A stretch of DNA of 64,000 bases from a virus (taxonomy: Duplodnaviria > Heunggongvirae > Uroviricota > Caudoviricetes). Below the pieces are notes generated by a model. That model did no database searches. It was not told the DNA's origin and saw only the letters and a list, made by a program, of their open reading frames with translations. Positions 7,070-64,000 of the stretch are shown here, in pieces. The translations under genes were made by a program, and so were the position numbers. How positions within the stretch are numbered: position 1 is the stretch's first letter; each line of letters starts with the position of its first letter. The stretch is from the IMG/VR virus record IMGVR_UViG_2721755711_000002; one strand, 5' to 3'.

Positions 7070-7097
7070 TCTTTGCTGTGTTTACTAAGGAGTAGCT

Positions 7098-7788: not shown

Positions 7789-7801
7789 TTGGGTAATAAA
7801 T

Positions 7802-8311: not shown

Positions 8312-8528
8312 TCAATATGTCGAGACGAAGGTATGTTTCGGCGCGCAGCCAGGCTCTGTAATCCGGGAGCATTTCGGGGCTGTTACACCAGCGGTTTGTT
8401 GCTGCAACATTTAATACATGAGCCTGATAAAGGCTTTTCAAAAAATACATGTCGAACCTCCTCTGGTTCTGTCGATTGGGCACCACAGATTATATCCGGA
8501 GGAAGGTTCGGCACCAGATGAGGTAGCC

Positions 8529-19921: not shown

Positions 19922-19932
19922 TACGGGATCCA

Positions 19933-20682
19933 ATGATGAATCATCTTTACGAACAACTGACCGCACTTAAACTCACCGGCTTCCGTGATGCGCTTAAAAA
20001 GCAACTTGCTCAGCCGGGCACATACCAGGAGCTGGGCTTCGAAGAACGCCTGTCATTACTGACAGCAGAAGAACTAACCTGCCGTGAAAACAGGAAGGCA
20101 GAGCGTCTGATCAAACATGCACGGTTCAGACTTAATGCTGAGTTATCAAAGCTGGATTATCGTAACAATAGAGGGCTGGACAGGGCCCTCATCCGTTCAC
20201 TCAGTCAGGGAAACTGGTTAACCCTGAAACAAAATATTTTACTGACCGGGGCCACCGGCAGCGGTAAAACGTTCCTGGCATGTGCACTTGGTCATAATGC
20301 CTGCCGACAGGGATACAAGGTCTACTATTATCGCCTTAAAGCGCTGATGGAACAGTGCTATCAGGGGCATGCTGATGGAAGATACAGCAAACTTTTGACC
20401 AGGCTGAATAATAGCGATCTGCTGCTTCTGGATGACTGGGGGCTGGAACCTCTCTCATCAGAACAGCGTAGCGACCTGCTGGAAATAGTGGATCTGATGT
20501 ACCAACGAGGCTCAATCATCGTAGTGAGCCAGTTGCCGGTGGAAAACTGGTACAAAATGATCGGAGACTCCACACATGCGGATGCCATCCTAGATCGACT
20601 GGTTCATGGCAGTATCAAGATCGAACTTAAAGGAGAATCAATGCGGAAAATACAATCTCCGTTGACCGAAGGAGATCAGTGA
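19933..20682 (+). CDS. istB: IS21-family helper ATPase IstB
   Basis: 249-aa ORF with Walker A LTGATGSGKT and Walker B LLLLDDWG. Confidence 0.9.
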   Translation: MMNHLYEQLTALKLTGFRDALKKQLAQPGTYQELGFEERLSLLTAEELTCRENRKAERLIKHARFRLNAELSKLDYRNNRGLDRALIRSLSQGNWLTLKQNILLTGATGSGKTFLACALGHNACRQGYKVYYYRLKALMEQCYQGHADGRYSKLLTRLNNSDLLLLDDWGLEPLSSEQRSDLLEIVDLMYQRGSIIVVSQLPVENWYKMIGDSTHADAILDRLVHGSIKIELKGESMRKIQSPLTEGDQ

Positions 20683-20836
20683 AGGTAATTTAAAAACGGT
20701 TCTGTGAAAGTGACACGAACCGATCTCCATCGATGTTACTCACCGATCTCCTTCACGGTAATACGCACATAATAAAAAAATCCAGAATAAAGCGCAAAAT
20801 AAGGTGATACAGCACTTTATTTGACCACTTACGTTT

Positions 20837-34112: not shown

Positions 34113-34347
34113 CGGAATCCACCTGTTTCTCTCTCTTCGCCTTCGCTTTTACCTGCACGGCGTCCTGTTCAGCCGTCACGATAGTTTCAGGCTCATCCTT
34201 CACCAGAATCAGGTCACCGTCCTGAACGGCTCGCCGGTAATAAACGGTGTTCTCAACGGTCACAACTTCCGTGGTGATGTATTTCCGGGCGTTATCCTCC
34301 ATCGGGAACTTCATCCCGGGAGCCGCCTTAACCTTCATTTTGTTCAT
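34105..34347 (-). CDS. Small conserved Mu-like protein (gp38 position)
   Basis: 80-aa ORF upstream of sheath. Confidence 0.45.
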   Translation of the reverse strand: MNKMKVKAAPGMKFPMEDNARKYITTEVVTVENTVYYRRAVQDGDLILVKDEPETIVTAEQDAVQVKAKAKREKQVDSDE

Positions 34348-34988
34348 GCTGTTGCTCTCTTAATTCAGTCAGCCCTGATATTTCAGCGTCGCTGTCCTGC
34401 ATCTGGTACCGGATGCCAAGGTTCAGCAGCTCCGGGTCAAGGTCTGACAGCCTGCCGTGGTAGCGGTTGAAGAGGCGGTCCGCTTCTGCGCCACGCTCCG
34501 GCCATTTGCCGTTCTCCAGCGCGTGCTCCACCCAGCGGGTATCGAACTCACAGGCAAACACGGACATTGCCCGCTCTGCCACGCCGGTGTTAAACAGCGT
34601 CCTGACCCGCCCGGGTTCGAAATAATCAATCTCCAGCCCCAAATCCTGACCGGTCAGCAGGCGACGGACGGATTCAACCAGCTGGTTTGTCCCGACCTCA
34701 TCCCGGACGGTGCCTCCCTGTCTGGCGCTCTGTTCGCTGCGGGTGTTGTAATCACCCACCACAACCACAAAGCGTCCGGTGGCAATGTATTTCCGGCGTG
34801 ACGTGGAATAGCGTTCGGTTTTCACGATGCCGCCGAACGTCACCCAGGCTGCCGGAAGGCTGCGAACAATCCGGCCCGGATCTTCATCCAGTTCACCGGC
34901 ATAGGTGCGGACATCCTGCACCATATGCCCCAGACCACAGCGCAGACGCTCAACCAGCGCCCGTTCAATTTCAGTAATCAGAATGCAC
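34328..34988 (-). CDS. Mu gp37-like protein; 5' end disrupted by IS629
   Basis: ORF continues from inside the IS629 inverted repeat; phage-derived part starts at 34988. Confidence 0.5.
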
Positions 34989-35030
34989 TGAACCGCCCCG
35001 GGTTTCCTGGAGAGTGTTTTATCTGTGAAC

Positions 35031-35922
35031 TCAGGCTGCCAGATCATCGTTTCCGATGGAAGCATAATAAGCTTTTTCTGCTTCTGCCGGTGGGATATGG
35101 CCCAGCCTTTCCAGCAATCGTCGATTGTTATACCAGTCCACCCACGTGAGTGTGGACAGCTCCACTTCTGTCCGGTTTTTCCAGCGCTTACGGTGTATTA
35201 CCTCCGCTTTGTAAAGGCCATTGATGCTTCTCCGCCATCGCGTTGTCATACGAGTCACCAGTACTCCCTGTTGATGCCAGTAAGCCGGCTTCCTTAAGCC
35301 GCTGCGTGTAGGCCAGCGATACATACTGAGAACCTTTATCACTGTGGTGGATTGTGCCGGACGGCCGACGGGCCCACAACGCCTGCTCCAGTGCATCCAG
35401 CACGAATGCCGTTTCCATGGATGATGAGACCCGCCATCCCACGATGTATCCGGCGAACACATCAATGATGAACGCCACATAAACGAAGCCCTGCCATGTG
35501 TTTACCCAGGTAAAATCAGCCACCCACAACTGGTCAGGACGTTCTGCCACGAACTGACGGTTTACGCGGTCGCATGCGGCAACGGCTTTCCGGCTGACGG
35601 TAGTGCGGACCTTTTTACCCCGGAGAACACCGGCAAGTCCCATAACCGCCATGAGACGTGCCACAGTGCATCTGGCCACTCTGATACCTTCCCGTAACAA
35701 CTGACGCCAGACTTTACGCACACCGTATACCTGGTGATTTTCATCGTATACGCGCTGTATCTCTTTCTTCAGCCAGTCATCGCGCTGCGCACGGGCACTG
35801 CGTTTATCAGGATGATGTCGCTGTTGCTGACAGTGGTAATACGTTGACGGGGCAATATGCAGTTCGCTGCATACCGGTCCGACCCCGTACTGCTCACGCA
35901 GCTTATCCAGCAGTGGCATCAT
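35031..35922 (-). pseudogene. IS629 transposase orfB interrupted by a 1-nt insertion frameshift
   Basis: ORF pieces 35188-35922 and 35031-35480 are in different frames; extra base in GAGAAGC (plus-strand ~35227-35231) breaks the expected DNAMAESINGLYKAEV. Confidence 0.7.
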
Positions 35923-36245
35923 TTTTTCCAGAGGCGGTCGAACTCCGCCTTCGCAAAATAAGCGGAAGCCTGGCGAAGGATATCGTTACTGCGGCGCAGT
36001 TCACGATTTTCACGTTCCAGCTCTTTCAGACGCTGACGTTCAGCGGTGGTGAGCCCACCATCACCGCCCCCGGTATCCCGCTCATGCTGGCGAACCCAGA
36101 CACGCAGAGTCTCCGGCGTACAGCCAATTTTTGGGGCAATGGAACAAATTGCCGCCCACTGTGAATCATACTCATCCTGACTTTCCAGAACCATACGAAT
36201 CGCTCGCTGACGGACTTCGGGGGAAAAACGAGTATTTTTAGTCAT
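35919..36245 (-). CDS. IS629 transposase OrfA (HTH)
   Basis: 108-aa [24 protein letters not shown]... with leucine-zipper-like C-terminus. Confidence 0.85.
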
Positions 36246-36270
36246 CCTGTTTACCTCTTTCTCAGGGAGT

Positions 36271-36723
36271 TTAGTCTCCAGGATTCCCGGGACGGTTCAC
36301 ACCTCCCCGCGTGGACTCACGCCCGAACTGACGGGAGCCGGAGCGGATACGCACCTGTGACGATGACTGGATCACACTGCCGGACGTATCCCGCCCGAGG
36401 TTGATTTGTCCTGCCGCGACTTTCTCCAGAAAGCGGATGGCGTCCCGGTAGCGCATCTGAATTTCTTCTGAGCAGATACGGTAATCGGTCGCCAGGTGAT
36501 AACGGGCGATATCGCAGCAGTAACCCACCAGAATCCCCGGGCTGTCAGGCCACGGGGTCCGGTAACGCCCCACCAGATAGCCATCAATCTGGGCACTGGC
36601 GCGTGCAAGCGCGGAGGCCAGCTTTTCTTCGTCGATGAATCCCGTCATGTCTTCATCCGTCAGTGTGCGTGCCTCGCGTTCACTGAACGCCCTGATGAAC
36701 TGTTCCGGTGTGGCGTAAGACAT
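36271..36723 (-). CDS. Mu gp36-like protein; last ~9 codons replaced by IS629 end sequence
   Basis: 150-aa ORF whose 3' end runs into the IS inverted repeat. Confidence 0.55.
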
Positions 36724-40251: not shown

Positions 40252-41414
40252 GATGCCTCCGGGGTGTCCTGCATAACCCAGCCTGTCAGCACGTCATCCT
40301 CAACCGTCGCCACTGACCAGCGGTCGCCCGACTGTAACGCATACCGCCACGCGTTGCCGTCCTGCGTGACATGCTCCGCCCGTTCGATGGTCTGCTGCAT
40401 CAGCACATAGTCGGCGGCGGTCGGGGGCGTGTCTGTTGCACTGAGGCGCTTCATGACGTCAGCCGTAAGGTTTACCGTCTGCCGTGCAGCGCCCGTGGCG
40501 GCGACCTGTTCCGGTGAACGGATGGCCAGCGGATATCGCTGGCGCGCATCCAGTTCGCTGACGTTCGCCAGTCCCCGGGCAAAATCCGGCCCGGTCAGGG
40601 TGCCGGTGACATACTGGCGGGCGCTGCGGTAATCATATTTTTCCAGTTCCGGCTGCCATGCCACCCGACCGGGATTAAATCCGAAGCCCGGGTCGGCGGT
40701 ATACACGGAGCCGTCCGGCATCTTCAGCCCCATTGTTCTGATGGTCTGGCCCGGCTGGCCATATTCCTGCTCAACCTCAACCAGTCGCCCCTCGCTGCTC
40801 TGCACCGTCAGGCCGTATTTCTCCACATCAGACGCCGAACGCGCCCGGATACGGCAGCGGCAGTGATAACCGTCCGGGGTGTATAAAAACTCCCAGACCG
40901 GGTCATCCGCCCGGGCGGTAAAACCGTTCAGGGCGGCGTGTTTCGGACGGGTGTGAAGGTCCATCACTGCCACGCGTTCAAAATAAGGCCGATCAGCCAC
41001 GTTCGCCATCTGTTGTTGATAACGCCCGGCGTTATATGACGACTGAATGTTGGTATCAAATATCGTGCGTAACCGGCGCGGCGTCAGTTGTCTGCCATGC
41101 AGTTCGCCGGTGTCCTCGTCCACAATCAGTTTTTTACCCAGCCAGCCTTTTGATTCCAGCAGTGGTTCCAGTTGTGCAGCAAACTCCCGGAACGTCCCGC
41201 CGTCAGCCAGTGCCGCCGTCAGGCCATCACGGACATCCTTCAGAACATCCAGTTTCAGCACACCCGCCACCGTGAACGCCCGGGCGTTGGCGATGTCCTT
41301 CACATCGTGCCAGCGGAAGCCGATAACGTACCCCTTGCTTTCGAAATACTTGATCGCTTCTTCCGGTTTCAGGGTGTACGCATAACCCAGGTCAACATCG
41401 TCAGCTGTCGGCAT
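40248..41414 (-). CDS. Head morphogenesis protein (Mu F-like)
   Basis: 388-aa ORF immediately after portal. Confidence 0.75.
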   Translation of the reverse strand: MPTADDVDLGYAYTLKPEEAIKYFESKGYVIGFRWHDVKDIANARAFTVAGVLKLDVLKDVRDGLTAALADGGTFREFAAQLEPLLESKGWLGKKLIVDEDTGELHGRQLTPRRLRTIFDTNIQSSYNAGRYQQQMANVADRPYFERVAVMDLHTRPKHAALNGFTARADDPVWEFLYTPDGYHCRCRIRARSASDVEKYGLTVQSSEGRLVEVEQEYGQPGQTIRTMGLKMPDGSVYTADPGFGFNPGRVAWQPELEKYDYRSARQYVTGTLTGPDFARGLANVSELDARQRYPLAIRSPEQVAATGAARQTVNLTADVMKRLSATDTPPTAADYVLMQQTIERAEHVTQDGNAWRYALQSGDRWSVATVEDDVLTGWVMQDTPEAS

Positions 41415-42996
41415 TCAGTCGCCCCCAGATATCCGCCACAAAGAATGCCTGCGTCAGCAACTGCCGCAGCGTGTCATCCGGCAGCTCCGGCCATGCTTCC
41501 GCCAGTACGTTCATGGCCTCGTCTGCATCCCGGCCTTCCTGTATGGCCTGCACCAGTGGGGCCACCAGTTCGTTCATCCCCTGCGCGATGGCCTCTGCCG
41601 GAAGCTCTGCCCGGTCGATGGTGCACTGTGCCGGGTCGTCCTCCCCGTTGTCCTGCTGACTGAGTACAGCAACATTCAGCCGCTCCCTGTGCTGGCTGAG
41701 GCCCGCCTGCGCAGGGAGACGCTGTGCCACTGGTACCAGTACCTCTTCGCCGTCTTTCGGGGTGGGGATACCGGTTTTTTTACGTACCCACGACACCGGG
41801 ATATCCTTCATCCCCACGTTATTGACCAGTATGCTGATGGCTTCCGCCACGCCCTTAATATCAGACTCCTGCTGTACATCGAATACCAGACGTGGCAGAC
41901 GACGAACCGGGATATCCTTCCAGCCATTCAGGCTGGCCATCATCTGGATCAGACTGCTGAACATGCCGGACAACTGGCGGGCATCGGCGGCCAGAATATC
42001 GTGACGGACCTCGTTGTGGATCACACCCAGCGCATTGGTGGAGGTTTTACCGTCTGCCTGTGTGGTTAACGTGCTGCCAAGAATGGCTTTTGAGGTGGTC
42101 CGCTCTGCCCAGTCCACCATCGCCATAAAGGCCTCCGGTCCGCCTGATGCGGCCTCCTTGAATTCAATCTCGTTACCCTGCGGCAGGGCTGCCACCGCTT
42201 CATGGCCCAGATTGACCAGGGCTTCGAGAATGTTGTCCCGGTCTTCGTCACTGGTGCCCTGTGCATAGTACGCAATACGCGCCGGAAGGCCGTAAATCTC
42301 CAGGAATTCCGCCATATCACGCAGCGCAAAGTTTTTGAACAGATACGGCCAGACCAGTACGCGGAACAGGCCGGATGAACCCAGGAGCCCCGACCGGGCG
42401 TTGTAACGGTGAACCAGCCAGCCGAACGGCCACAGTGCGGAACCGTCCTTACCATCTTCCCCGCGACCGCCGTCATCCAGCCGGAGTTCGTCATTGTGTT
42501 CCGGCAGGGTTATGAACCAGTTATGCGGGCGCAGCGTCACCGCATCCGGTAACCACGTTTTATCCACGAACGCCCAGCTGATTTCCTGACAGCTGAAGCC
42601 GTAACCGACACTGCTCATCCCGTTGAGGATGATGTCCTCCATGTCCGGGATACCGTGCAGCCATTCATCCACGGCGGCGGCCAGCTCCTTTTCTGCCTTC
42701 GAGGCATTGCGGGGCGGCTCCACCGACCAGTCCAGCGTCAGCAACGCTTTTTTGCGCTTTTCCATCTCGGCGAACAGATGGCCATCACGTTCTTCCATAT
42801 CCGCAAACAGCATCGCCTGCGCCGGAAGATAACCGCGTTCGGCAGCTTCCAGAATGCGCGGTAGTTTTCTGATGTTCAGACCACGCGACGGGTGGTCGGG
42901 ATAAATGCGCAGCCGTTCTGCCACTCTGACCGACTGCGTGGTTTTGAGTGCCTCACGTTTCAGCGGGCGTCCGTAAATATCAACAAGCTGTGCCAT
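41401..42996 (-). CDS. Portal protein (Mu gp29-like)
   Basis: 531-aa ORF following large terminase. Confidence 0.8.
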   Translation of the reverse strand: MAQLVDIYGRPLKREALKTTQSVRVAERLRIYPDHPSRGLNIRKLPRILEAAERGYLPAQAMLFADMEERDGHLFAEMEKRKKALLTLDWSVEPPRNASKAEKELAAAVDEWLHGIPDMEDIILNGMSSVGYGFSCQEISWAFVDKTWLPDAVTLRPHNWFITLPEHNDELRLDDGGRGEDGKDGSALWPFGWLVHRYNARSGLLGSSGLFRVLVWPYLFKNFALRDMAEFLEIYGLPARIAYYAQGTSDEDRDNILEALVNLGHEAVAALPQGNEIEFKEAASGGPEAFMAMVDWAERTTSKAILGSTLTTQADGKTSTNALGVIHNEVRHDILAADARQLSGMFSSLIQMMASLNGWKDIPVRRLPRLVFDVQQESDIKGVAEAISILVNNVGMKDIPVSWVRKKTGIPTPKDGEEVLVPVAQRLPAQAGLSQHRERLNVAVLSQQDNGEDDPAQCTIDRAELPAEAIAQGMNELVAPLVQAIQEGRDADEAMNVLAEAWPELPDDTLRQLLTQAFFVADIWGRLNADS

Positions 42997-42999
42997 TAA

Positions 43000-44646
43000 T
43001 TACCATCCTCCTGAACCAAAACGCCCGCCACGGTCACGCCCGCTGCTGCGTGGGGTGTGTATCTGAAATTTTGCGCTACGCGAAACCGCCAGCGTCCACA
43101 GCATGTGCAGACAGTCCGGGCCATCATCGTGGTCAGCTTTGGGGTAGTGGCGCAGCTGGTCAATCAGCGTCTGATGTGTGTGGCTGATACGAATCAGGCC
43201 GTTGGCCATATGCGGCTGAAGGGATTCGATACGCAGTGCCTTATCCTCCAGCGGGATGACCGGCAGCGCCGGAACCGGTACGCCCAGCGCCGCCGAACGC
43301 TCAACCAGCACGGTACGCAGAAACTCCTGAAACTGAACGGACTCAAACGACCAGCACAGACAGTGGTATTCCCGCTGATACTTGATCACGTCTTCGATAA
43401 TTTTATTCGGCAGACGTCGGCGGATATCGGCTTCAACCACATCCAGAATGCCGGTAAAGCGGTTAAAGCCCCCCACGAGAATGGCTGACGGGTCGCGGTT
43501 TTTATTCTTCTTCCCGAGACTGGGGTCAGCAGCACCATAAAACACCCATTCATCAAGACGGTTAACCCAGAACTTAATGCAGCCCGCAAACAGCGCGTCT
43601 TCACCGCTGACCGGGTCGTTCTGGTATTCAGAATCAAAGGTGTCGTGACCGTCACGGACACGAATTTTCATCAGTGCCAGCAGTGGACGCGCCGCCCATG
43701 ACACCACCGACCCGGCGAGCATGTCGGCTTCGTTCTGCTGATAAAGCGCCTCCGCCGCTTCCGGCTGTTTGTTGCGGATGAGTTCTTCCCACTCGTCCCA
43801 CAGCTTCATGTTGGCAGGCCACTGAATGACGGCCTTAAAACGGGCCGTTTTCCACATCGGGTTATTGAGTGTGCGCGACAGTACGGAGTCGTAATGCAGG
43901 ATGGTCCCGATATAAATAATATCGGTTTTACCGCCAGCCTCGCCCAGCGGCATCACGGTTTTGGTAAGCCAGTTATGCAGCTTGTCGCGCTGCTCCGGGT
44001 TACGCACCATCTCGTCGTTCTCGATGTCGTCGAGGATGACCAGGTCAGGACGGTACGGACCGTGGCGCAGACCACGCAGTTTTTTACCACTACCGGCAAC
44101 GGTCACCTTGATATTGTTGGCTGTGACGATGGTCCCCATACGCCAGACGCGACCCTGCCCACACACCTCCGGGAAATCGTTTTTTAAACGGGGGTTAAAT
44201 TCCAGTTCAGCCTTGATGGCTTCCAGCATCGGATAAGCCTGGTCGATACTGTCCATAATGATGACCGGATAATGCTTAATACCCCGGATAATGGTCCACA
44301 GGGTAAACAGCTGAGTCACCAGCGTGGATTTTGCTTCACCACGGGGCGCGGCGATGGCGTCGTTCTCCGGGTCCGGGCTTGCCACAACCTGTGGCAGACG
44401 GGTGAACAGGTATTTATGCAGCTCACTTTTTGCCGGGTTGCGGACGTAGTGCGGGAAATAGTTTTCGACAAAATAATCGTAGCCCGTCACCGGGTCGCAG
44501 ACTGCCGCCCGGCGGGCCTGTGTGGCCTGCGGGTTAACATCGAACCCCAGACATTCAGCCTCAATGGTCTGGCGGAGGTTGGCGATGTACTCCTGCAGGC
44601 TTCTCTGAAACTCTTTAATGGAAAGTTTACGTTTACGTTTTGCCAC
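43000..44646 (-). CDS. Terminase large subunit
   Basis: ~548-aa ORF (GTG start proposed next to MTase stop); Walker-like and nuclease-like segments. Confidence 0.8.
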   Translation of the reverse strand: MAKRKRKLSIKEFQRSLQEYIANLRQTIEAECLGFDVNPQATQARRAAVCDPVTGYDYFVENYFPHYVRNPAKSELHKYLFTRLPQVVASPDPENDAIAAPRGEAKSTLVTQLFTLWTIIRGIKHYPVIIMDSIDQAYPMLEAIKAELEFNPRLKNDFPEVCGQGRVWRMGTIVTANNIKVTVAGSGKKLRGLRHGPYRPDLVILDDIENDEMVRNPEQRDKLHNWLTKTVMPLGEAGGKTDIIYIGTILHYDSVLSRTLNNPMWKTARFKAVIQWPANMKLWDEWEELIRNKQPEAAEALYQQNEADMLAGSVVSWAARPLLALMKIRVRDGHDTFDSEYQNDPVSGEDALFAGCIKFWVNRLDEWVFYGAADPSLGKKNKNRDPSAILVGGFNRFTGILDVVEADIRRRLPNKIIEDVIKYQREYHCLCWSFESVQFQEFLRTVLVERSAALGVPVPALPVIPLEDKALRIESLQPHMANGLIRISHTHQTLIDQLRHYPKADHDDGPDCLHMLWTLAVSRSAKFQIHTPRSSGRDRGGRFGSGGW

Positions 44647-44647
44647 G

Positions 44648-45388
44648 TCACACCTGCGCTGTTTCTGCCTGCGCTTTTTCGATACGTGCGCAGGCGATAT
44701 CAAAATACTGGTTAGTCATTTCAATGCCGGTAAACCGTCCGCCACGGGCAAGTACAGGGATGGCGGTGGTGCCGCTTCCCATAAACGGATCGAGAACGTG
44801 CGCATCCGGTGCCAGCGGTTTAACCAGCTCGGCCATCAGCTGAACCGGCTTTGCGGTCATGTGCAGTTTTTCGGACGGGACAACACGCTGCGTAATCACA
44901 CCCGGGAACGGGCCACCGTGCGGGCATTTGTCGAGTTTTCCGTTGCTGCCCCAGACCACATACTCGGCCTGATGCCGGAAATAGCCGGTGTGTGGCGCAC
45001 GGGAAGCCTGCGTTTTATCCCAGACAACCAGACCGCGCCACAGCACACCACCGGCCTGAAATGCATCGGTAAGCGCCGGTAGTTGTCGCCAGTCACTGAA
45101 CACCATGAAATAACCGCCGGGATTCAGCCTGTGCAATGCATGAGATATCCACATGGAACACCAGAACGCCCAGCTGCGCTGGTCGCGGTTATCGCCGGTG
45201 AACTCGGCATACTGGGTGTGACCGACATACTTGTCCGAAGGGGCCATGCTGCGGTCTGATTTGTGTGTGCCACCACTGCTGTAAGGCGGGTCGGTAATGA
45301 CGGCATCAAAACGTTCAGATAACGCTGGCAGCACATCAAGAACATCACCGCAATACAACGTTGCGTTACCAATAATCTGTTTTTGCAT
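44648..45388 (-). CDS. Orphan DNA methyltransferase (beta-class N6-adenine or N4-cytosine)
   Basis: 246-aa ORF with DPPY motif early and FMGSGTT AdoMet motif late; no adjacent restriction endonuclease ORF. Confidence 0.85.
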   Translation of the reverse strand: MQKQIIGNATLYCGDVLDVLPALSERFDAVITDPPYSSGGTHKSDRSMAPSDKYVGHTQYAEFTGDNRDQRSWAFWCSMWISHALHRLNPGGYFMVFSDWRQLPALTDAFQAGGVLWRGLVVWDKTQASRAPHTGYFRHQAEYVVWGSNGKLDKCPHGGPFPGVITQRVVPSEKLHMTAKPVQLMAELVKPLAPDAHVLDPFMGSGTTAIPVLARGGRFTGIEMTNQYFDIACARIEKAQAETAQV

Positions 45389-45434
45389 TACAAATCCCGA
45401 ATATCAGACGGCCCGGAAAACCGGGCCGCTGTGG

Positions 45435-45935
45435 TTAACTGAAATTATCCTCAAGCTCTTTAGCGAAGCCTTCGAGCACCTCAAGAAACGGGGCATACTG
45501 TGCCGGGTGACGCTCCTTGATGAACGCGCCGAGCCGCTGCACCACTTCCAGTGCCGTGGCGAGCCGGTCGGTTTCCGGCAGGATTTTTTTGCTGCTGGCC
45601 ACCGCCTTACTGAGACTGTCGGACAGACTCGCCAGCAGTTCGACGGACTCCTGCGGCGGGATGTCCGGGTTCTGGTTCAGCCGTTCAAGCGTCGTCTGAC
45701 ACTTCACCACCAGACTGATAAGCACGGTGCGGGCGACACTTTCCAGCCCGTCACCGGCGAGCGCGTGCGCGGCCCGCAGCTTGTCCCAGTCGTCGCCGTT
45801 CTTCATCGCCTGCGTTTTCCAGCGCCGCGCGGTGTCGTGCGGCACGGCGTACTTCATGGCGACGATATCCAGCGGAAGCTGGTCAAAGATGTACCCGTTA
45901 CGGACTTTGTCCCTGATATCCTGTGACCACGCCAT
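45435..45935 (-). CDS. Putative terminase small subunit (Mu gp27-like)
   Basis: 166-aa ORF upstream of MTase and large terminase; assignment by position. Confidence 0.4.
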   Translation of the reverse strand: MAWSQDIRDKVRNGYIFDQLPLDIVAMKYAVPHDTARRWKTQAMKNGDDWDKLRAAHALAGDGLESVARTVLISLVVKCQTTLERLNQNPDIPPQESVELLASLSDSLSKAVASSKKILPETDRLATALEVVQRLGAFIKERHPAQYAPFLEVLEGFAKELEDNFS

Positions 45936-46161: not shown

Positions 46162-46344
46162 TCAGTTCTGCGAACACTGCCGGATGCCGTCAATAATCCG
46201 GCAGACCTTTGCCGCCGCGTCAAACAGCTGGCCCGCTCTGTTAATGTCTGTGCATCCCACCGGAAGCAACATCACCAGAAACAGGGCCAGAACACAGCGC
46301 GCGGCTTTACGTGGCGTTCTGTGGGTCCAGTGCTGACGCGTCAT
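46162..46344 (-). CDS. Small lipoprotein (possible o-spanin-like lysis component)
   Basis: 60-aa ORF with lipobox LLPVGC, start overlaps endolysin stop; paralogue at 59166-59348. Confidence 0.55.
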   Translation of the reverse strand: MTRQHWTHRTPRKAARCVLALFLVMLLPVGCTDINRAGQLFDAAAKVCRIIDGIRQCSQN

Positions 46345-46886
46345 ACCGCTACGCGCTCCTTCAGCCAGCCATAAACAAACGATTCGTTAGCCTCGCGTTT
46401 CTCTGCCAGTTCCAGATAGCGGTCACCCTGCGTGCAGTTCAGGGCTGTCAGCATCACCCGTTCGCCGTCCTGACCGCGATTATTCAGGAAGGCGCGCAAT
46501 GCGCTGATGGTACGAGGTCCGATGCGTCCGTCTGCGTCCATATCCGGGTACAGCCTGCCGCGCAGGTTGAAAACGTTCAGCCAGCGTTGGAGCATTTTTG
46601 ACGCCACGGATGGCCCCATATTCACACCGGTATCACACAGCTCTGCGGCAATATCAGGGGATAATGCCGCAACCTGATCAAATCGCGGGCCATACCAGTA
46701 ATCGGCTTCAAGGATGTCCAGCGCCTGTTCGCGGGTTAACTCACGCATATCGCCACGGTATCCGTGGGCACGGGCGACTTTTTCCGTAATGCCCCATTTG
46801 GTCGGGCCGCCCTTATCATCCGGGTGATTGACGTAACCGCCTTCTTTGCCCAGGACTTCATCAAAAATTTCATCTTTTGATTTCAT
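46341..46886 (-). CDS. Endolysin (glycoside hydrolase family 108-like muramidase with peptidoglycan-binding domain)
   Basis: 181-aa ORF with N-terminal EGGYVNHPDDKGGPTKWGIT motif. Confidence 0.75.
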   Translation of the reverse strand: MKSKDEIFDEVLGKEGGYVNHPDDKGGPTKWGITEKVARAHGYRGDMRELTREQALDILEADYWYGPRFDQVAALSPDIAAELCDTGVNMGPSVASKMLQRWLNVFNLRGRLYPDMDADGRIGPRTISALRAFLNNRGQDGERVMLTALNCTQGDRYLELAEKREANESFVYGWLKERVAV

Positions 46887-47172
46887 GTGGATGCCTCAGT
46901 AACGAAAGGATTTTTGACAAATTCCCGTGCGCCCACACGATAAGCGCACAGAAAACCAGATTCAGCGCCACAACCAGCCAGCTGGAGTGCGTGTATGTAC
47001 CGGACAGCCAGCGGAACGGGATGATGATGTAGCCGAGCATCAGCCAGTACGCCAGCCAGGTAATCATCGGTTTATGCGCCGCACCGTGGCGGCGATACAC
47101 AAACAACCCCAGCACAATGGCGAGGCACAGCCAGACGTTCACGATACCGGCAAGGCTACTTTCCATTTCCAC
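46870..47172 (-). CDS. Lysis-associated multi-pass membrane protein (holin/antiholin candidate)
   Basis: 100-aa ORF with hydrophobic helices between holin-like gene and endolysin. Confidence 0.45.
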   Translation of the reverse strand: MEMESSLAGIVNVWLCLAIVLGLFVYRRHGAAHKPMITWLAYWLMLGYIIIPFRWLSGTYTHSSWLVVALNLVFCALIVWAHGNLSKILSLLRHPHEIKR

Positions 47173-48035: not shown

Positions 48036-48503
48036 TTAATCAAAAAGCCCCACCTGAGTGGGGCTTTTCAGCGAAGTCTGTTTTTGTCGTCGGTGTATCA
48101 GCTGCCATGCGTACCGGTCTGAAATGCCGTAACGGGGACAGAGCAGTGCCAGCGCCTGCCGGTGTGAGCATCCGTCTTTTACATGCTGCTGTAAATCAGC
48201 CATAAAACGGGTGTTACGCAGGGCACGTAATGCATGATCGCAACGGGGAATGTAAAACGGAGCACCGCCAAGAAAGCGGATCAGTTTGTTGATTTCGTCT
48301 TCGGTCAGCACATCATGTAACAGGGCATGGACACCGCCGGTTCGTTCGGCGTGTGCGCCGGTTTTACCGCTTAACGTCACGCCACCAAAAGAACGGATTA
48401 ACCGGGTCAGGGCGGGGAAGCCAATCACGCTAATCAGTTGCTGCACGGAATCAGGCAACAGTGCCTGCGCATCGCGAAGATCTGTTTCACTGAAGGTCTG
48501 CAT
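48036..48503 (-). CDS. mor: Mor-family transcriptional activator (middle operon regulator)
   Basis: 155-aa ORF; C-terminal HTH region resembles Mu Mor/C family; conserved position before lysis and late genes. Confidence 0.7.
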   Translation of the reverse strand: MQTFSETDLRDAQALLPDSVQQLISVIGFPALTRLIRSFGGVTLSGKTGAHAERTGGVHALLHDVLTEDEINKLIRFLGGAPFYIPRCDHALRALRNTRFMADLQQHVKDGCSHRQALALLCPRYGISDRYAWQLIHRRQKQTSLKSPTQVGLFD

Positions 48504-48598
48504 GATGGCGTCTCCGGTAGTAACTTACTGTTATTATAGCCATACATGATCGCCTGTACAGACCACAAAAAAGCCCCTGCAAGGCAGAGGCTGATTCT

Positions 48599-58496: not shown

Positions 58497-58755
58497 GGTA
58501 ACAGAAGACGGTCGTCATGTTGAGGAAGTGCATGTCCTGGGGGATATGTACCGCCTGGAGTTCTATCCGCGTAACACTCATCTTGCAGCGAAGATTGAGT
58601 ATTGCCGGGACGGGAATATTCCGTGCATTCCTGTAGAAAAAGAGGATGAAGCCTACATCATCACACTGAACGGTGACACGGCGCGTTGTATCTGTCGTGG
58701 CGACAGTGAAGCCCGGAATGAAATAGCAAGATGTCGCGCCCATACAGATAAATAA
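58480..58755 (+). CDS. Hypothetical Cys-containing small protein; 5' end uncertain, possibly a gene remnant
   Basis: 91-codon ORF (TTG in track; internal ATG at MYRLEF) with own terminator. Confidence 0.35.
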   Translation: MITTPQVTEDGRHVEEVHVLGDMYRLEFYPRNTHLAAKIEYCRDGNIPCIPVEKEDEAYIITLNGDTARCICRGDSEARNEIARCRAHTDK

Positions 58756-58763
58756 AAAGCAAA

Positions 58764-58800
58764 AACCCCGGCTGCGGGAACAGTTCGGGGTTTTCTGTTT
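58764..58800 (+). terminator. Rho-independent terminator
   Basis: Stem AACCCCG/CGGGGTT followed by TTTTCTGTTT. Confidence 0.5.
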
Positions 58801-58826
58801 CTGACCTTGAGTAAGCAAGGGAGAAC

Positions 58827-59009
58827 ATGGAGAAGTATAAACGAATTCTGTTTAGGTTGACTATGAAAAACGGCCTTGAATTGAAAGCGCCTGTAACTGA
58901 TGACATCAGCAGAGCGGTGGCTTTTGCCATTAAGTGGGTGGCTGTCGGTATCGCTGTGTCTCCGATTCTGTATGGGATGGCAAAATTGATCATTGCTGTG
59001 AAATCGTAA
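58827..59009 (+). CDS. Small membrane protein
   Basis: 60-aa ORF with C-terminal hydrophobic helix; GGGAG site upstream. Confidence 0.35.
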   Translation: MEKYKRILFRLTMKNGLELKAPVTDDISRAVAFAIKWVAVGIAVSPILYGMAKLIIAVKS

Positions 59010-59026
59010 GTGGGGCAGGGGTAAAT

Positions 59027-59161
59027 ATGTCAGATAGCATTATAAAACTGGCGCGAATTCTCTGTGTGGTTGTTGGCCTTTCATTTTCAGCAATGTTGGT
59101 TGCCATTTTCATTTCCACCGCCTGGCGAGTATTGAGCTTATCCGGATTGATTGGTGGATAG
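59027..59161 (+). CDS. Small hydrophobic peptide (44 aa)
   Basis: Short ORF MSDSIIKLARILCVVVGLSF... directly upstream of lipoprotein gene. Confidence 0.25.
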   Translation: MSDSIIKLARILCVVVGLSFSAMLVAIFISTAWRVLSLSGLIGG

Positions 59162-59165
59162 TGAG

Positions 59166-59348
59166 ATGAAGCGAAAACACTGGACACACAGAATGCCGCG
59201 AACGGCGGCGAAATGGGTACTGGTAGCGATACTGGTGCCTTTTTTCCTGGTGGGATGCGTCAGCCTGGATAAGGCGCGCCAGCTTTTCGATACGGCTTCT
59301 CAGGTCTGCGAAATTGTCGACGGTGTTCGACAGTGTCTGCAGAGCTGA
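59166..59348 (+). CDS. Small lipoprotein, paralogue of 46162-46344
   Basis: 60-aa ORF; lipobox FLVGC; mature-part motifs QLFD.A..VC.I.DG.RQC shared with paralogue. Confidence 0.55.
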   Translation: MKRKHWTHRMPRTAAKWVLVAILVPFFLVGCVSLDKARQLFDTASQVCEIVDGVRQCLQS

Positions 59349-59510
59349 TCGCCCGTAAGAGCAGAATATTTTGCTGAAAAATGAAGGATGTGTCAGCGTC
59401 CGGAAAGCATGAAATTCTGCTGCGTGTACCAATTTTATCTTATTCATTCTAAATCTTGCCGAATCAAGCAACTGCCCGGGCGGCAAGGGGTATTTTTATC
59501 CGGAGGGGAT

Positions 59511-59735
59511 ATGAAGAGATTACTGGTAACCGTAAAGCCCTTTAACGGAACGATTCCATTCAGGGTTTTGCAGCGTGGACGTGTTCTGGTTAAGGATATC
59601 TTCAGTGGTAAATGCACGGAATGTTATTCCCGGACATATGAAGTGGATGCCACGGATGAAGAAATTTCTGTTGAATGTGATCTGAACGCGAATATGGCGG
59701 GGATTGTAACAGCCACGTTGTTGCCGGTTTCATGA
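59511..59735 (+). CDS. Hypothetical protein
   Basis: 74-aa ORF with GGAGGGG site. Confidence 0.4.
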   Translation: MKRLLVTVKPFNGTIPFRVLQRGRVLVKDIFSGKCTECYSRTYEVDATDEEISVECDLNANMAGIVTATLLPVS

Positions 59736-59775
59736 ATGACATAGAATGTCTCCGGGTACCCAAAAGGAGAACACT

Positions 59776-59991
59776 ATGTTTGTAGAAAATAACCTGAAGG
59801 CTGATCCTGATAATCAGGGATGGGTTCTGGGTTGGGCTGTAGTACGTGACAAACCGTGGCATCTGGTCGGTATTTATGCGACGGAGGATGGCGCAAAGTC
59901 TAAACGCTCTGAATTGAATGGGGAGTATGAAGTTCGTTATGGTTCCCATCGTTTAGGTAGTGATGATTTTATGTCTGTCGGACTTAGCTAA
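59776..59991 (+). CDS. Hypothetical protein
   Basis: 71-aa ORF followed by terminator. Confidence 0.4.
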   Translation: MFVENNLKADPDNQGWVLGWAVVRDKPWHLVGIYATEDGAKSKRSELNGEYEVRYGSHRLGSDDFMSVGLS

Positions 59992-60012
59992 CTGGCTGTG
60001 ATGCCTGTTTGT

Positions 60013-60038
60013 AGCCCCGCAAATGCGGGGCTTTTTAT
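60013..60038 (+). terminator. Rho-independent terminator
   Basis: Stem AGCCCCGC/GCGGGGCT, loop AAAT, then TTTTT. Confidence 0.6.
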
Positions 60039-60052
60039 ATTTGGAGACGATA

Positions 60053-60445
60053 ATGAAAAAAACAGAAAATAAACCGGTTGCAATTGGTGCCGCTGTTGTT
60101 CCGTTTAAGTTTGAGTTGTCTCAACTGGTGGAGATGCGCATCAGTGATGAATGGGGTGAGGTTAAAGCCCGCGCGCAGTATGCGGATGGCGAAAACCAGT
60201 ACTTGATCCACTACAAGGCTGCTGATGGTCGCGCCACAACGGCGTGGTTTGGTGAGTCAATGCTGGAAGCAACAGAAGATGATCGCCATCCGGGCTGTCC
60301 GGTATTTGCCGGTATGAAATTACCGGAAGGCGCAGTTGAACTGCAGCCGGGTGAGGTGTTCGTAATGTCAGAAGTCATTGATGGCAAACCGCAGTATTCA
60401 CGTATTGAAACTAACGGCAAGGACGTTTGTCTGGTTCGCAAGTAA
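60053..60445 (+). CDS. Hypothetical protein
   Basis: 130-aa ORF with GGAG site; followed by hairpin GCAGCCCTT-CAGTG-AAGGGCTGC. Confidence 0.5.
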   Translation: MKKTENKPVAIGAAVVPFKFELSQLVEMRISDEWGEVKARAQYADGENQYLIHYKAADGRATTAWFGESMLEATEDDRHPGCPVFAGMKLPEGAVELQPGEVFVMSEVIDGKPQYSRIETNGKDVCLVRK

Positions 60446-60650
60446 CTTGCATTACAGCAGCCCTTCAGTGAAGGGCTGCGATAATGTGAGAAATAAAAAA
60501 CCGGTCACAGGGAGCAGCTACACAGAACCGGCCGGCGAAGACCGCCAATACCACCCATGCTTCAGTAAAACATGCATATGACATTAGCTGGTATTGATGT
60601 AAATGCAATGTTACGCATCGACAAAAATAAAAAACCGGCAGGGGAAATCC

Positions 60651-60875
60651 ATGGAAGATTTGCCGGTGGCAAAAGTTGCCAATGCTTTTATAACCGTAGT
60701 CGCAGAGTTGCGGAGTGCAACTACGAATGCTGCAGGTATATGGCTGAATGGCGTTTCAATGATGTACGTCATCTTATCTGTAAATGTTAATGATAAACGC
60801 TCCCATTTGTGCGGGTCCTTTCCGGGAGTTGAAACACCGGGGGTCATGGGACGCGCAAAAACGCGCTATTTATGA
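60651..60875 (+). CDS. Questionable small ORF overlapping the cos region
   Basis: 74-aa ORF running into cos-like sequence; may not be translated. Confidence 0.2.
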   Translation: MEDLPVAKVANAFITVVAELRSATTNAAGIWLNGVSMMYVILSVNVNDKRSHLCGSFPGVETPGVMGRAKTRYL

Positions 60876-60960
60876 AAATTTTTCGAGTTCCACTTCCGGT
60901 TTTTTAATTATCTAACCAATTGATTAGATTGTTTTTAGTTATCAAGAAAACCGGAAGTCC
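60840..60960. other. Lambda-like cohesive end site (cosN/cosB region)
   Basis: CGCTATTTATGAAAATTTTT closely matches sequence next to the lambda left cohesive end; ~170 bp upstream of Nu1; inverted ACTTCCGGTTTT / AAAACCGGAAGT. Confidence 0.45.
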
Positions 60961-61027
60961 GACCAGTTTGTGGGAAAATAGCGGCAAAAACGGAGTTGAG
61001 TGTAAAGTGAACAGCTAAAGAGGGTGT

Positions 61028-61537
61028 ATGGCAACGCAGGCGGAGGTAGCCGAGCATCTTGGTATAACTGAACGCTGGTTGCGGGATCTTCAGAAGCACC
61101 CGGGAGCGCCAAAAAATCGAAAGCGTGGTGAATACGATATTGATGCCTGGCGATATTTTTATATTTCATACCTTAAACGCAAAGGAAGAAGCGATACTGA
61201 TGACGATGGAAATAGCGATTACGAAGAAAAATTACTTATCGCCAGATGGAAATTGACTGAAGAACAGGCAATAGCACAGCAATTAAAAAATCAGGTAACC
61301 GAAGGCAAGCTCATTGATTCTGGGTTCTGCGTTTTCGCTCTCAGCAAACTGGCGATGGCATTGTCCAGTACGCTTGATTCCATTCCTTTATCCATGCAGC
61401 GACAGTTCCCGGATTTAACCCCGCGTCATATCGATTATCTGAAAACCCTTATCGCAAAAGGCGCGAATCAGTGTGCGCGGACAGGGGATAAATTGCCGGA
61501 GTTACTCGATGAATATATCCGAACTACAGCTGAATAA
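61028..61537 (+). CDS. nu1: Terminase small subunit (lambda Nu1-like)
   Basis: 169-aa ORF; central region aligns with lambda Nu1 (FC.F.LS..A...S.LD..PLS.QR.FP.L..RH.D.LK). Confidence 0.8.
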   Translation: MATQAEVAEHLGITERWLRDLQKHPGAPKNRKRGEYDIDAWRYFYISYLKRKGRSDTDDDGNSDYEEKLLIARWKLTEEQAIAQQLKNQVTEGKLIDSGFCVFALSKLAMALSSTLDSIPLSMQRQFPDLTPRHIDYLKTLIAKGANQCARTGDKLPELLDEYIRTTAE

Positions 61538-63425
61538 TATGATGGCTGCTGTTTCAGTTGCGCTGCAGCCTCTGGTCAGGGTTGTACCGATGACGGCAGT
61601 TGAATGGGCTGATCAAAATTATTATCTGCCTAAAGAATCGTCATACGGTGATGGGGAATGGAAAACACTGCCGTTCCAGGTCGCCATTATGAACAGCATG
61701 GGGCACGACAGGATCCGCACTGTTAATCTGATTAAATCGGCGCGTGTGGGTTACACCAAAATGCTGCTGGGCGTGGTCGGGTATTTTATTGAGCATAAAT
61801 CCCGTAACAGCCTGCTCTTCCAGCCGACAGATTCCGCAGCTGAAGATTTTATGAAAGCGCATGTGGAAGCAACGCTCCGGGATGTCCCCAGCCTTAAAGC
61901 GTTATCGCCATGGCTGGGCAGAAAACATCGTGACAACACACTCACTCTGAAGCGTTTTTCCTCCGGCGTGGGGTTCTGGTGCCTGGGGGGTGCCGCTGCT
62001 AAAAACTACCGTGAAAAATCAGTGGATGTGGTCTGCTATGACGAACTCTCCTCGTTTGAACCGGATGTGGAAAAGGAAGGCTCGCCAACGCTGCTTGGCG
62101 ATAAACGTATCGAAGGTTCGGTATGGCCTAAATCCATACGCGGCTCAACGCCAAAAATTAAAGGTTCCTGTCAGATTGAAAAAGCCGCGAACGAATCTGC
62201 ACATTTTATGCGGTTTTATGTGCCATGCCCTCATTGTGGTGAAGCCCAGTATCTTAAGTTTGGCGATGATGCGACAACCTTTGGCCTGAAATGGGAGAAG
62301 GGTAAACCGGAAACGGTGTATTACCTGTGTGAACATAATGGCTGTGTGATCCGGCAGTCGGAGCTTGACCAGACCGACGGGCGCTGGATTTGTGACAATA
62401 CCGGGATGTGGACGCGTGACGGCCTGGCATTTTACAGCGCCGGTGATGAGGAGATGCCGCCACCGCGCTCAATCACGTACCACGTGTGGACAGCGTACAG
62501 TCCGTTCACCACCTGGGTACAGATTGTTTATGACTGGCTGGATGCGCTGAAGGATCCGAACGGTGTCAAGACGTTTATTAACACCACGCTCGGGGAGCCC
62601 TATGAAGAGGCCGTGGCAGAAAAACTGAGCTTTGAGTTGTTGCTGGAAAAAGTCTGCCACTATGATGCGCAGGTTCCCCTGCGGGTGGTTTACCTGACTG
62701 CCGGGATCGACTCCCAGAAAGATCGCTATGAAATTTATGTCTGGGGCTGGGCTCCCGGCGAAGAAGCCTTTCTGATTGACAAGCAAATTATCATGGGGCG
62801 ACCGGAGGACGAGGACACCCTTAAACGTGTTGATGCGGTGATCCGGAAAAAATACCGCCATGCTGACGGTACTGAAATTTCCATTTCCCGCGTCTGCTGG
62901 GATACCGGTGGTATCGACCAGGACATTGTGTATCAGCGTTCCAGGAAACACGGCACTTTTTTTGTGCTTCCCATAAAAGGGGCATCGGTGTATGGCAAGC
63001 CGGTGATCACCATGCCCAAAAAGCGCAACCAGCGTGGTGTGTTTTTGTGTGAGGTGGGCTCCGATACCGTCAAGGAAATGCTGTACGCCCGTTTTGCCCT
63101 GCCGGTGGTTTCTGCCAGTGAAGCAGCCCCGTATACCTTCCGTTTTCCGGATAACCCGGACATTTTTTCGGAAGAAGAGGCGCGTCAAATCGTAGCGGAA
63201 GAACTGGTGGAAAAGGTGGTTAACGGCAGGGTGAAACTGCTGTGGGATAAAAAAGGGCGACGCAACGAAGCCCTCGACTGCCTGGTATATGCTTATGCCG
63301 CCCTGCGCGTTTCGGTACAGCGGTGGCAACTGGACCTTGAAGCGCTGGCGAGGGCACGAAGAGATGAGCAGGATGAGGATGATATGAGCATGGAAGAGAT
63401 CGCGGCTGCACTGAGTGGAGGATAA
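61509..63425 (+). CDS. A: Terminase large subunit (lambda gpA-like)
   Basis: ~639-aa ORF from MNISELQ; strong colinear similarity to lambda A (TAVEWADQNYYLPKES...). Confidence 0.9.
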   Translation: MNISELQLNNMMAAVSVALQPLVRVVPMTAVEWADQNYYLPKESSYGDGEWKTLPFQVAIMNSMGHDRIRTVNLIKSARVGYTKMLLGVVGYFIEHKSRNSLLFQPTDSAAEDFMKAHVEATLRDVPSLKALSPWLGRKHRDNTLTLKRFSSGVGFWCLGGAAAKNYREKSVDVVCYDELSSFEPDVEKEGSPTLLGDKRIEGSVWPKSIRGSTPKIKGSCQIEKAANESAHFMRFYVPCPHCGEAQYLKFGDDATTFGLKWEKGKPETVYYLCEHNGCVIRQSELDQTDGRWICDNTGMWTRDGLAFYSAGDEEMPPPRSITYHVWTAYSPFTTWVQIVYDWLDALKDPNGVKTFINTTLGEPYEEAVAEKLSFELLLEKVCHYDAQVPLRVVYLTAGIDSQKDRYEIYVWGWAPGEEAFLIDKQIIMGRPEDEDTLKRVDAVIRKKYRHADGTEISISRVCWDTGGIDQDIVYQRSRKHGTFFVLPIKGASVYGKPVITMPKKRNQRGVFLCEVGSDTVKEMLYARFALPVVSASEAAPYTFRFPDNPDIFSEEEARQIVAEELVEKVVNGRVKLLWDKKGRRNEALDCLVYAYAALRVSVQRWQLDLEALARARRDEQDEDDMSMEEIAAALSGG

Positions 63426-63428
63426 AGG

Positions 63429-63638
63429 ATGGTTTATACGCATGAAATGCTTTGCGAGGCGCGTCGGGCATTACATGAACTGATGATCGGGCGTGCTGTG
63501 GTTTCTGTCGGCAGGAACGGACGGCAGGTTCAGTATTCGCGTGCGACGATTGGTGAACTGCGGCAATACATTGAAGAGCTGGAGAGTGCGCTGGGCGTGT
63601 CCGGACGGCGTCGCGGTCCGGTGGGAGTGAGACTGTGA
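63429..63638 (+). CDS. W: Head-tail joining protein (lambda gpW-like)
   Basis: 69-aa ORF aligning with lambda W (ARRALHELM.G..V..V...GR.V.......EL..YI.ELE......RRRGP). Confidence 0.8.
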   Translation: MVYTHEMLCEARRALHELMIGRAVVSVGRNGRQVQYSRATIGELRQYIEELESALGVSGRRRGPVGVRL

Positions 63639-64000
63639 ATGTGGAGTTGATAGATGTTCACGGACAGCCCCTGCGACAGAGTATGGGATATTCCGGTGGC
63701 GGCTCCGGATTTGGTGGGCAGCTTGCGGAATGGTTACCTGCACCAGAAAGTGCCGACGTGGCGCTCTTACCTTCCATTCATCTGGGTAACGCCCGCGCGG
63801 ATGATCTGGTCCGTAATAATGGCATTGCCGCGAATGCTGTGGAAATTCATAAAGACCATATCGTCGGGCATATGTTTCGTCTGAGTTATCGCCCCAACTG
63901 GCGCTGGCTGGGGATGTCGGAAGCAGATTCACATGCTTTTATTGAAGATGTTGAGGCGGCGTGGATGGAATACTGCGATCCGGTGTTTGGTACGATGGAT
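63635..64000 (+). CDS. B: Portal protein (lambda gpB-like), 5' partial, continues beyond the window
   Basis: Translation from GTG 63635 matches lambda B N-terminus (GGGSGFGGQL...LLP...GNARADDLVRNNG.AANA...HKDHIVG). Confidence 0.8.
   Translation, partial: MNVELIDVHGQPLRQSMGYSGGGSGFGGQLAEWLPAPESADVALLPSIHLGNARADDLVRNNGIAANAVEIHKDHIVGHMFRLSYRPNWRWLGMSEADSHAFIEDVEAAWMEYCDPVFGTMD

Follow-up and report, generated by a model that had tools for sequence, protein, structure and literature searches.

The stretch of DNA analyzed here, IMG/VR record IMGVR_UViG_2721755711_000002 from a virus of the Caudoviricetes (64,000 nt; hereafter the window), contains a Mu-like transposable prophage in which a gene for a DNA methyltransferase (MTase) lies on the minus strand at 44648–45388, between a DUF1804 gene and the gene for the large terminase (TerL). 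We find that the MTase gene is real, intact, and under purifying selection, and that it is an optional accessory cassette with sharp boundaries. The reading that we favor, and consider probable, is that it encodes a functional solitary MTase, carried as an optional cassette at the DUF1804|TerL junction, whose late methylation protects phage DNA from restriction. Within this reading we infer the late expression, the adenine target, and the protective effect.

The methyltransferase gene and its cassette

The MTase gene runs from ATG to TGA and encodes a protein of 246 amino acids (aa), an orphan beta-class N6/N4 DNA methyltransferase. Its DPPY motif (motif IV) occupies residues 33–36 (window 45281–45292) and its FMGSGTT motif (motif I) residues 202–208 (window 44765–44785), and because motif IV is thus N-terminal to motif I, the enzyme has the beta motif order. 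The protein matches the Pfam family PF01555 (N6_N4_Mtase) with E=1.8e-24 and 87.3 bits against a cut-off of 26.7, PHROG 67 ("DNA methyltransferase") with E=1e-54, and the PADLOC profile MTase_II, a Type II restriction-modification (RM) methyltransferase profile, with E=1.1e-64. Both motifs are invariant in 20 homologs of 54–93% identity and near-invariant across 73 homologs of 47–80% identity. An earlier first-pass annotation, made from the letters of the window, had described a 246-aa beta-class MTase with DPPY ahead of FMGSGTT, and that description holds in its coordinates, its motif positions, its family (PF01555), and the intactness of the catalytic motifs among homologs.

Across the 73 homologs, conservation is strongest in motif IV and in a block at residues 99–148, and the expected target-recognition region (residues 149–175) is about 27 residues long and moderately variable. 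The core common to the family, DWRQLP...SRAPHTGYFRHQxEYVVWGS, is invariant. The ratio of nonsynonymous to synonymous change (dN/dS) between the MTase and its relatives is 0.06–0.33, where the value for locus L005 is unreliable owing to an indel, and every copy examined is full length. RefSeq labels the same gene, at 98.8% nucleotide identity and in the same context, "DNA-methyltransferase" (WP_001171801.1); it is an ordinary kind of phage gene that is already recognized there as a DNA methyltransferase. In an allele of 93% identity, found in four sequences (P0001, L098, L100, and L106), 15 of the 17 changes fall in residues 75–109 (window 45065–45166), a pattern more suggestive of a patch acquired by recombination in a surface helix than of gradual divergence.

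An AlphaFold (AF2) model of the MTase, made with 20 homologs as input, has a pLDDT of 82.5 and a pTM of 0.82, and its only floppy parts are two loops at residues 39–70 and 126–140. When this model was compared with the PDB by Foldseek, the top 40 matches were beta-class DNA methyltransferases without exception, with M1.HpyAVI, CcrM, and M.BceJIV first. M1.HpyAVI (PDB 5hfj/5hek) is the closest solved structure, with a sequence match of E about 1e-14 over residues 24–236 at 21–24% identity and a fold match of 8e-15 by Foldseek (TM 0.79–0.83 normalized to the target). Like the window MTase, it is a compact beta-class enzyme (~230–250 aa) with a very short recognition region, whereas it is a chromosomal enzyme of Helicobacter pylori and the window MTase is phage-borne. 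A 2016 structural paper reportedly describes a relaxed, GAGG-type specificity for M1.HpyAVI, which is not transferable to the window MTase. The predicted activity, from sequence, is most likely methyl transfer from S-adenosylmethionine (SAM) to DNA; the DPPY motif together with the nearest structures points most likely to N6-adenine as the target, and by analogy with other beta-class enzymes the MTase is most likely dimeric.

The cassette occupies 44656–45399 on the minus strand and is 744 nt long, comprising an 11-nt leader, CGGGATTTGTA, and the open reading frame (ORF) up to ...GCAGCGC. In near-identical prophages, the empty site has the 8 nt TGTATACC in place of the 744-nt cassette. We aligned the junctions of occupied (the window and L088) and empty (L092) forms, and on the upstream side both share the DUF1804 stop, a hairpin, and GTCTGATATT, and on the downstream side both have AGGTGTGACGTG, made up of the Shine-Dalgarno sequence and the TerL start. 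In the occupied form, the last MTase codons, CAG GTG TGA, continue into this common downstream flank, and the cassette boundaries enclose a single gene.

For a survey of IMG/VR, the DUF1804 protein served as the anchor, 80 loci were fetched, and TerL and the MTase were then located. Where both DUF1804 and TerL have 95% or more identity to those of the window, 13 loci are occupied, with a gap of 786 nt between the two genes, and 7 are empty, with a gap of 50 nt. The backbone gene is present in 54 of 5426 complete E. coli genomes and the MTase in 35, so ~65% (about two thirds) of the copies are occupied.

The first-pass annotation had also stated that there is no cognate endonuclease, and we likewise found none in the prophage by ORF, Pfam, and defense-library searches or by comparison with relatives, in checks that took in neighboring genes, antisense ORFs, small ORFs, and extra DNA. 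The antisense ORFs across the MTase region have no Pfam match, and nine small neighboring and early-region ORFs have no match in the PADLOC defense library. The sole DNA in the window beyond its annotated relative, a prophage of E. coli B1172, is the stretch at 34988–36300, and we rejected an endonuclease hidden in this extra 1.3 kb because the stretch is an IS3-family element (discussed below). These results bear on whether the gene is a remnant of an RM or other defense system whose partner gene has been lost or lies elsewhere. The best PADLOC match of the MTase is indeed to a Type II RM methyltransferase profile, but there is no nuclease or defense match among neighbors, antisense ORFs, or early-region ORFs, the cassette has room for one gene only, and the sampled contexts of homologs are all late regions or ends of prophages, with no endonuclease adjoining in any of them. 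We find such a remnant hardly credible.

Expression and proposed role

The MTase gene is closely joined to the packaging genes. TerL (43000–44646, minus strand; PHROG 38, 5.3e-144) starts with a GTG at 44644–44646, which leaves 1 nt between the MTase TGA and the TerL start; the same spacing is found in the RefSeq annotation of the relative, and the TerL Shine-Dalgarno sequence, AGGTG, sits within the final MTase codons. On the other side, 46 nt separate the MTase from the DUF1804 gene (45435–45935, minus strand; PF08822, 2.8e-52; PHROG 756, 1.8e-67), the counterpart of Mu gp27 and the upstream border of the slot. PHROGs labels the DUF1804 protein a DNA-binding protein, and we treat the gene as encoding a putative small terminase or DNA-binding packaging protein, the name "small terminase" coming from its position; in phage B3, a Mu gp27-like gene annotated "terminase small subunit" lies directly 5′ of the gp28-like terminase gene. 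The location between a putative small terminase and the large terminase, given in the first-pass annotation, is thus borne out by the DUF1804 (PF08822) and TerL (PHROG 38) genes on the two sides.

Read along the phage strand, the gene order is Mor activator, lysis genes, two small ORFs, DUF1804, MTase, TerL, and portal. The gene for the Mor-family late transcription activator (48036–48503, minus strand) matches the "Mor transcription activator family protein" of L001 at 100% of amino acids, and the Mu-type portal gene (41401–42996, minus strand; PF06074 Portal_Mu, 6e-95) is the next gene of the late operon after TerL. The only sigma-70-like promoter on the minus strand from Mor to TerL is at 48533–48560, just upstream of Mor, and a sigma-70 consensus scan, to which C/Mor-type late promoters are invisible, gave no promoter of the MTase's own between the Mor promoter and TerL. 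An own promoter and terminator, the mark of a moron that is expressed from a repressed prophage, are not found with the MTase cassette. With no promoter of its own and a 1-nt gap to TerL, the MTase is expected to be coexpressed late.

The hairpin in the upstream flank lies at 45405–45431 on the minus strand, just after the DUF1804 stop codon. It is G+C-rich and conserved, with the core GGCCCGG-TTTT-CCGGGCC, and its 71-nt context has a folding energy of -24.9 kcal/mol (z = -3.1). We considered it as a terminator brought in by the cassette and rejected this, because it occurs at empty sites too and is without a T-tail; the terminator scan did not call it. The hairpins of the empty (L092) and occupied (L088) junctions differ in the loop alone (TTTT vs. 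TCTT), and the hairpin is part of the phage backbone, not of the cassette. Candidate roles for it are RNA processing or stability, attenuation, or service as a recombination landmark.

The wiring of the MTase gene bears directly on the second role that the first-pass annotation had offered, an epigenetic one, in which the MTase would be expressed from the repressed prophage and would alter host gene expression or mark the chromosome as self. Regulatory functions are indeed known for orphan MTases, among them Dam, CcrM, and M.BceJIV, and the gene is intact and under purifying selection in many lysogens, both of which would fit a role in the lysogen. The MTase, however, lacks a promoter-like site of its own, its translation is coupled to that of TerL within the late packaging operon, and its relatives sit behind Com, a late translational switch, or in a lysis cassette. 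Moreover, lysogens do not express M.EcoGI and M.EcoGII, two comparable MTases of prophages (PMC5778455). We regard a lysogenic role as quite improbable.

The position of the gene between the gp27-like gene and TerL, coupled to the latter, raises a further possibility, that methylation is needed for recognition of the packaging site or for control of late genes. Dam methylation is needed for cleavage at pac in P1 and for transcription of mom in Mu, and a requirement of this kind, if true, would explain why the MTase lies between two packaging genes; the same gene order is found in diverged Serratia prophages. Against it, the empty site with the same flanks occurs in ~35% of near-identical prophages, so packaging does not need the MTase. 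In addition, many unrelated cargo genes fill the same slot in other transposable phages, and homologs of the MTase lie at quite different positions in other prophages. A developmental role is thus very improbable.

Protection of phage DNA from host restriction, the remaining role that had been put forward, is the best supported, to judge from the position of the gene in the late operon and the contexts of its homologs. On this reading, the MTase would share a Mor-dependent late transcript with the lysis and packaging genes and would be made only late in lytic growth, as replicated phage DNA nears packaging. It would then methylate the replicated phage DNA, along with the DNA of the dying host, before headful packaging, and the methylated progeny DNA would resist methylation-sensitive restriction enzymes in the next host. 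The MTase would in this way do the job of Mom in Mu by means of an unrelated enzyme. Solitary MTases are a standard phage countermeasure to restriction, and the repeated occurrence of the family in other prophages at sites that are late or under Com control points to late or controlled expression.

Several observations weigh against restriction protection by late adenine methylation. DPPY is compatible with N4-cytosine as well, and an N4-cytosine enzyme, 8s9m, is among the structural matches. The promoter scan is blind to C/Mor-type late promoters, and an internal promoter may exist. The gene is missing from one third of near-identical prophages, so any benefit would be conditional, and the prophage of the window looks defective. 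Nor do all members of the family have late timing, as Bpm of phage BPP-1, the closest named phage homolog (52% identity), lies in an early operon after cro. Finally, we found no report of expression or methylation for the MTase or for any relative of more than 50% identity, and literature searches on Bpm, on the methylomes of Mu-like prophages, and on DUF1804 gave no specificity or functional data.

The prophage and the question of mom

The Mu-like prophage extends over 20789–58496 on the minus strand, with its repressor/MuA/MuB end at ~58.5 kb and its tail-fiber end at ~20.8 kb; its annotation was transferred from the B1172 prophage, which is 92–98% identical. It is nested in a lambdoid prophage (window 1–18200 and 58497–64000; 91–96% identity to E. 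coli prophages), one flank of which has lysis-type genes and the opposite flank genes for the small and large terminases, head-tail joining, and the portal. A megablast search of the 3.2-kb region against deposited phages gave no match, and only prophage forms of the element are known.

At the tail-fiber end, a complete ISEc12 of the IS21 family (18219–20788, plus strand; istA 18380–19921 and istB 19933–20682; 99.7–99.8% identical to annotated ISEc12 copies) adjoins the last tail-fiber assembly gene in place of the final ~65 bp of the prophage right end. Four intact relatives have a conserved right terminus (...CCCAGAATTGCGCGTCAATTAGCCCAGAAAAAAACGCGAAGTTACA) that occurs nowhere in the window, and the ISEc12 junction shows no obvious target duplication. 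Since the transposase-binding repeats of the right end are missing, the prophage should be unable to transpose.

According to the first-pass annotation, a modification function of the mom type would normally be expected on this missing right end. The truncation is real, but what has gone is only the ~65 bp of repeats. The four intact E. coli relatives end ~95 bp past the last tail-fiber gene and pass straight into host or other prophage DNA, and none of them has com, mom, or gin. The lineage never had mom at its right end. No ORF with the CxxC...CxxC pattern of Com was found in the window, and the MTase lies ~24 kb away from the right end. Because the intact relatives lack com and mom and the cassette is optional, the MTase is no stand-in for a lost mom.

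A second insertion lies in the late operon at 34988–36300 on the minus strand (orfA 35919–36245; orfB split into 35188–35922 and 35031–35480), between a DUF1834-like (34328–35065) and a gp436-like (36271–36723) head-tail gene, and is absent from the B1172 relative. Its ORF translations have the orfA/orfB layout of a transposase, and we take it to be of the IS3 family from the resemblance of orfA to IS629/IS1203. This element may be polar on the downstream tail genes. With the right end truncated and an insertion sequence in the late operon, the prophage of the window is probably defective, so this copy of the MTase may be silent.

We considered, on these grounds, whether the MTase is a decaying passenger, that is, a silent remnant in a defective prophage with no current function. 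The loss of the right terminal repeats at the ISEc12 junction, the IS3-family element between head-tail genes of the late operon, and the nesting of the prophage within another prophage all speak for such decay. The ORF, however, is intact and 98.8% identical in nucleotides to copies in apparently complete prophages, and it has no excess of nonsynonymous change. Moreover, decay would concern this copy only and is compatible with restriction protection as the role of the gene family. For these reasons, we think a functionless passenger unlikely.

Elsewhere in the late operon, the endolysin module (46332–46894) has been swapped: the window has a GH108/PG_binding_3 endolysin (46341–46886) and E. 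coli B1172 an M15 metallopeptidase with two holins.

Relatives, known systems, and other cargo of the slot

The MTase family comprises 5787 proteins at E≤1e-20, and 430 loci were found in species-representative genomes. The order DUF1804-MTase-TerL recurs in Buttiauxella, Intestinirhabdus, and Edwardsiella, as well as in Serratia prophages with a TerL of only 35% identity. In Salmonella Mu-like prophages (L170–L172, 5807–7286), a 61%-identical homolog lies between the holin and lysozyme genes with 4-nt overlaps on both sides, and the DUF1804|TerL slot is filled by other cargo; the Salmonella homolog is an independent recruitment into the late operon. A Mu-like prophage of Serratia marcescens (L173, 4292–5768) has its homolog as the last gene at the right end, which is the position of mom, preceded by a reverse-strand hexapeptide-repeat acetyltransferase gene and followed by a truncated host men gene, with no Com ORF upstream of it.

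In P2- or HP1-like prophages and in phage Chuche, the homolog stands at the prophage end, behind and overlapping a gene for a Com-type zinc ribbon (PF10122). Homologs coupled to Com occur in Salmonella, Yersinia, Delftia, Acidovorax, and others, and a Com zinc-ribbon gene lies directly upstream in ~12 of the 74 species-representative loci with enough upstream sequence. Com-type ORFs upstream of family members (IRCxxCxRKLAE...IKCPRCGT) are often missed by gene finders; they are present in L175 (Delftia; about 4700–5095), L017, L018, L020, L022, L076, L078–L080, and L083. Four or more unrelated modification enzymes thus have Com as a partner, namely Mom, the Hia5 type, the D12 type of phage B3, and this beta-class family.

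The two named phage homologs, Bpm of BPP-1 and the MTase of Escherichia phage Chuche, are solitary members of the same family, with 52–54% identity over 94% of the length. They differ from the window MTase in setting, as Bpm follows cro and the Chuche gene follows Com at the end of a P2-like genome. No published specificity turned up for Bpm or for the Chuche enzyme. The Com-coupled ORF48 of phage B3 was considered as a further member and rejected, as it is of the D12 class (PF02086) and has no similarity.

The closest parallel in setting was described by Drozdz et al. in 2012: Mu-like prophages without mom carry the Com-coupled adenine MTases Hin1523, Nma1821, and Hia5, which accept nearly any adenine as substrate and block a large number of restriction enzymes (PMC3299994). 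The window MTase resembles them as a solitary SAM-dependent MTase in a mom-less Mu-like prophage with a presumed late antirestriction modification, and members of its family also lie directly behind Com or, in one Serratia prophage, at the mom position. The Hia5-type enzymes, however, are Dam-related proteins of ~281 aa with DPPY near residue 194 and with Dam enzymes as their closest structures (PMC3299994), and they thus form a different family from the window MTase. By this published description they have the alpha order, in contrast to the beta order, 246 aa, and PF01555 match of the window MTase, which moreover is neither at the right end nor accompanied by Com.

Mom itself has an acyltransferase fold and makes N6-(1-acetamido)-adenine; it is not a methyltransferase (PMC3299994). 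The window MTase shares with the Mom/Com system of Mu the proposed role, a late and controlled modification of phage DNA that blocks restriction, and some of its homologs are coupled to Com. It is unrelated to Mom, however, and has neither Com beside it nor a place at the right end.

M.EcoGII and M.EcoGI are likewise solitary, prophage-borne enzymes of the beta order in a late transcription unit (after Q in phage 1720a-02), but they are nonspecific, have 349–352 aa with ~100 extra central residues, and reside in lambdoid (Stx-type) prophages. When the M.EcoGII-like protein of phage 1720a-02 was aligned pairwise with the window MTase, only the motif IV and motif I blocks aligned, at 30% over 63 aa (E=2e-8). 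We rejected identity with M.EcoGII of E. coli O104:H4, as that enzyme has 349 aa and aligns at the motif blocks only. The M.EcoGIX/M.BceJIII enzymes are plasmid leading-region MTases that make N6-methyladenine promiscuously at SAY and act on single strands (PMC7736820). They are similar to the window MTase as compact beta-class antirestriction enzymes of mobile elements and differ from it in being plasmid-borne and acting on single strands during conjugative entry. Their NCBIfam model, PRK13699, gives the window MTase 75.3 bits over residues 13–240 against a cut-off of 244, and we rejected identity with M.EcoGIX of E. coli O104:H4 on this score, which is far below the cut-off, and on the plasmid location of that gene. 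Set apart in this way from the Hia5 type, B3 ORF48, M.EcoGII, and M.EcoGIX/M.BceJIII, the window MTase belongs to an uncharacterized subfamily.

This very compact, uncharacterized enzyme could have a relaxed specificity, and the beta-class family is found repeatedly in the place of Mom or under its regulatory logic, which extends the Hia5 story to an unrelated enzyme. A bolder proposal, which we hold tentatively and think rather unlikely, is that the family is a third independent lineage of low-specificity or nonspecific adenine MTases, after Hia5 and M.EcoGII, used as an equivalent of Mom. Toxicity of such an enzyme would explain why its gene is wired again and again to late expression, whether behind Com, in a lysis cassette, at the right end, or in a packaging operon. 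If this were true, the role of Com as a switch would extend to four or more unrelated enzymes that modify DNA, and chromatin footprinting would gain a new enzyme of small size.

The DUF1804|TerL junction is a hot spot for cargo across transposable phages. RcapMu has no gene in the slot, Mannheimia phage 3927AP2 has a 48-aa ORF there, and D3112 has the reverse-strand orf25. The IMG/VR loci add a forward ORF of 73–104 aa (31 loci), four reverse-strand ORF families, and one membrane protein. Among the kinds of cargo in L113–L166 and L084 (4003–4539) are D3112 orf25-like reverse-strand proteins with a CxxC...CxxC pair, reverse-strand families of 162 aa and of 126–163 aa, and a 246-aa membrane protein; seven other cargo proteins of the slot have no Pfam domain. 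The junction of the gp27-like and TerL genes is now defined as an exact insertion slot, known in both empty and occupied form, and is useful for finding accessory and antidefense cargo. The MTase differs from the reverse-strand cargo in having the orientation of the late operon, to which it is coupled. The reverse-strand genes of the slot are candidates for exclusion or defense functions expressed in the lysogen.

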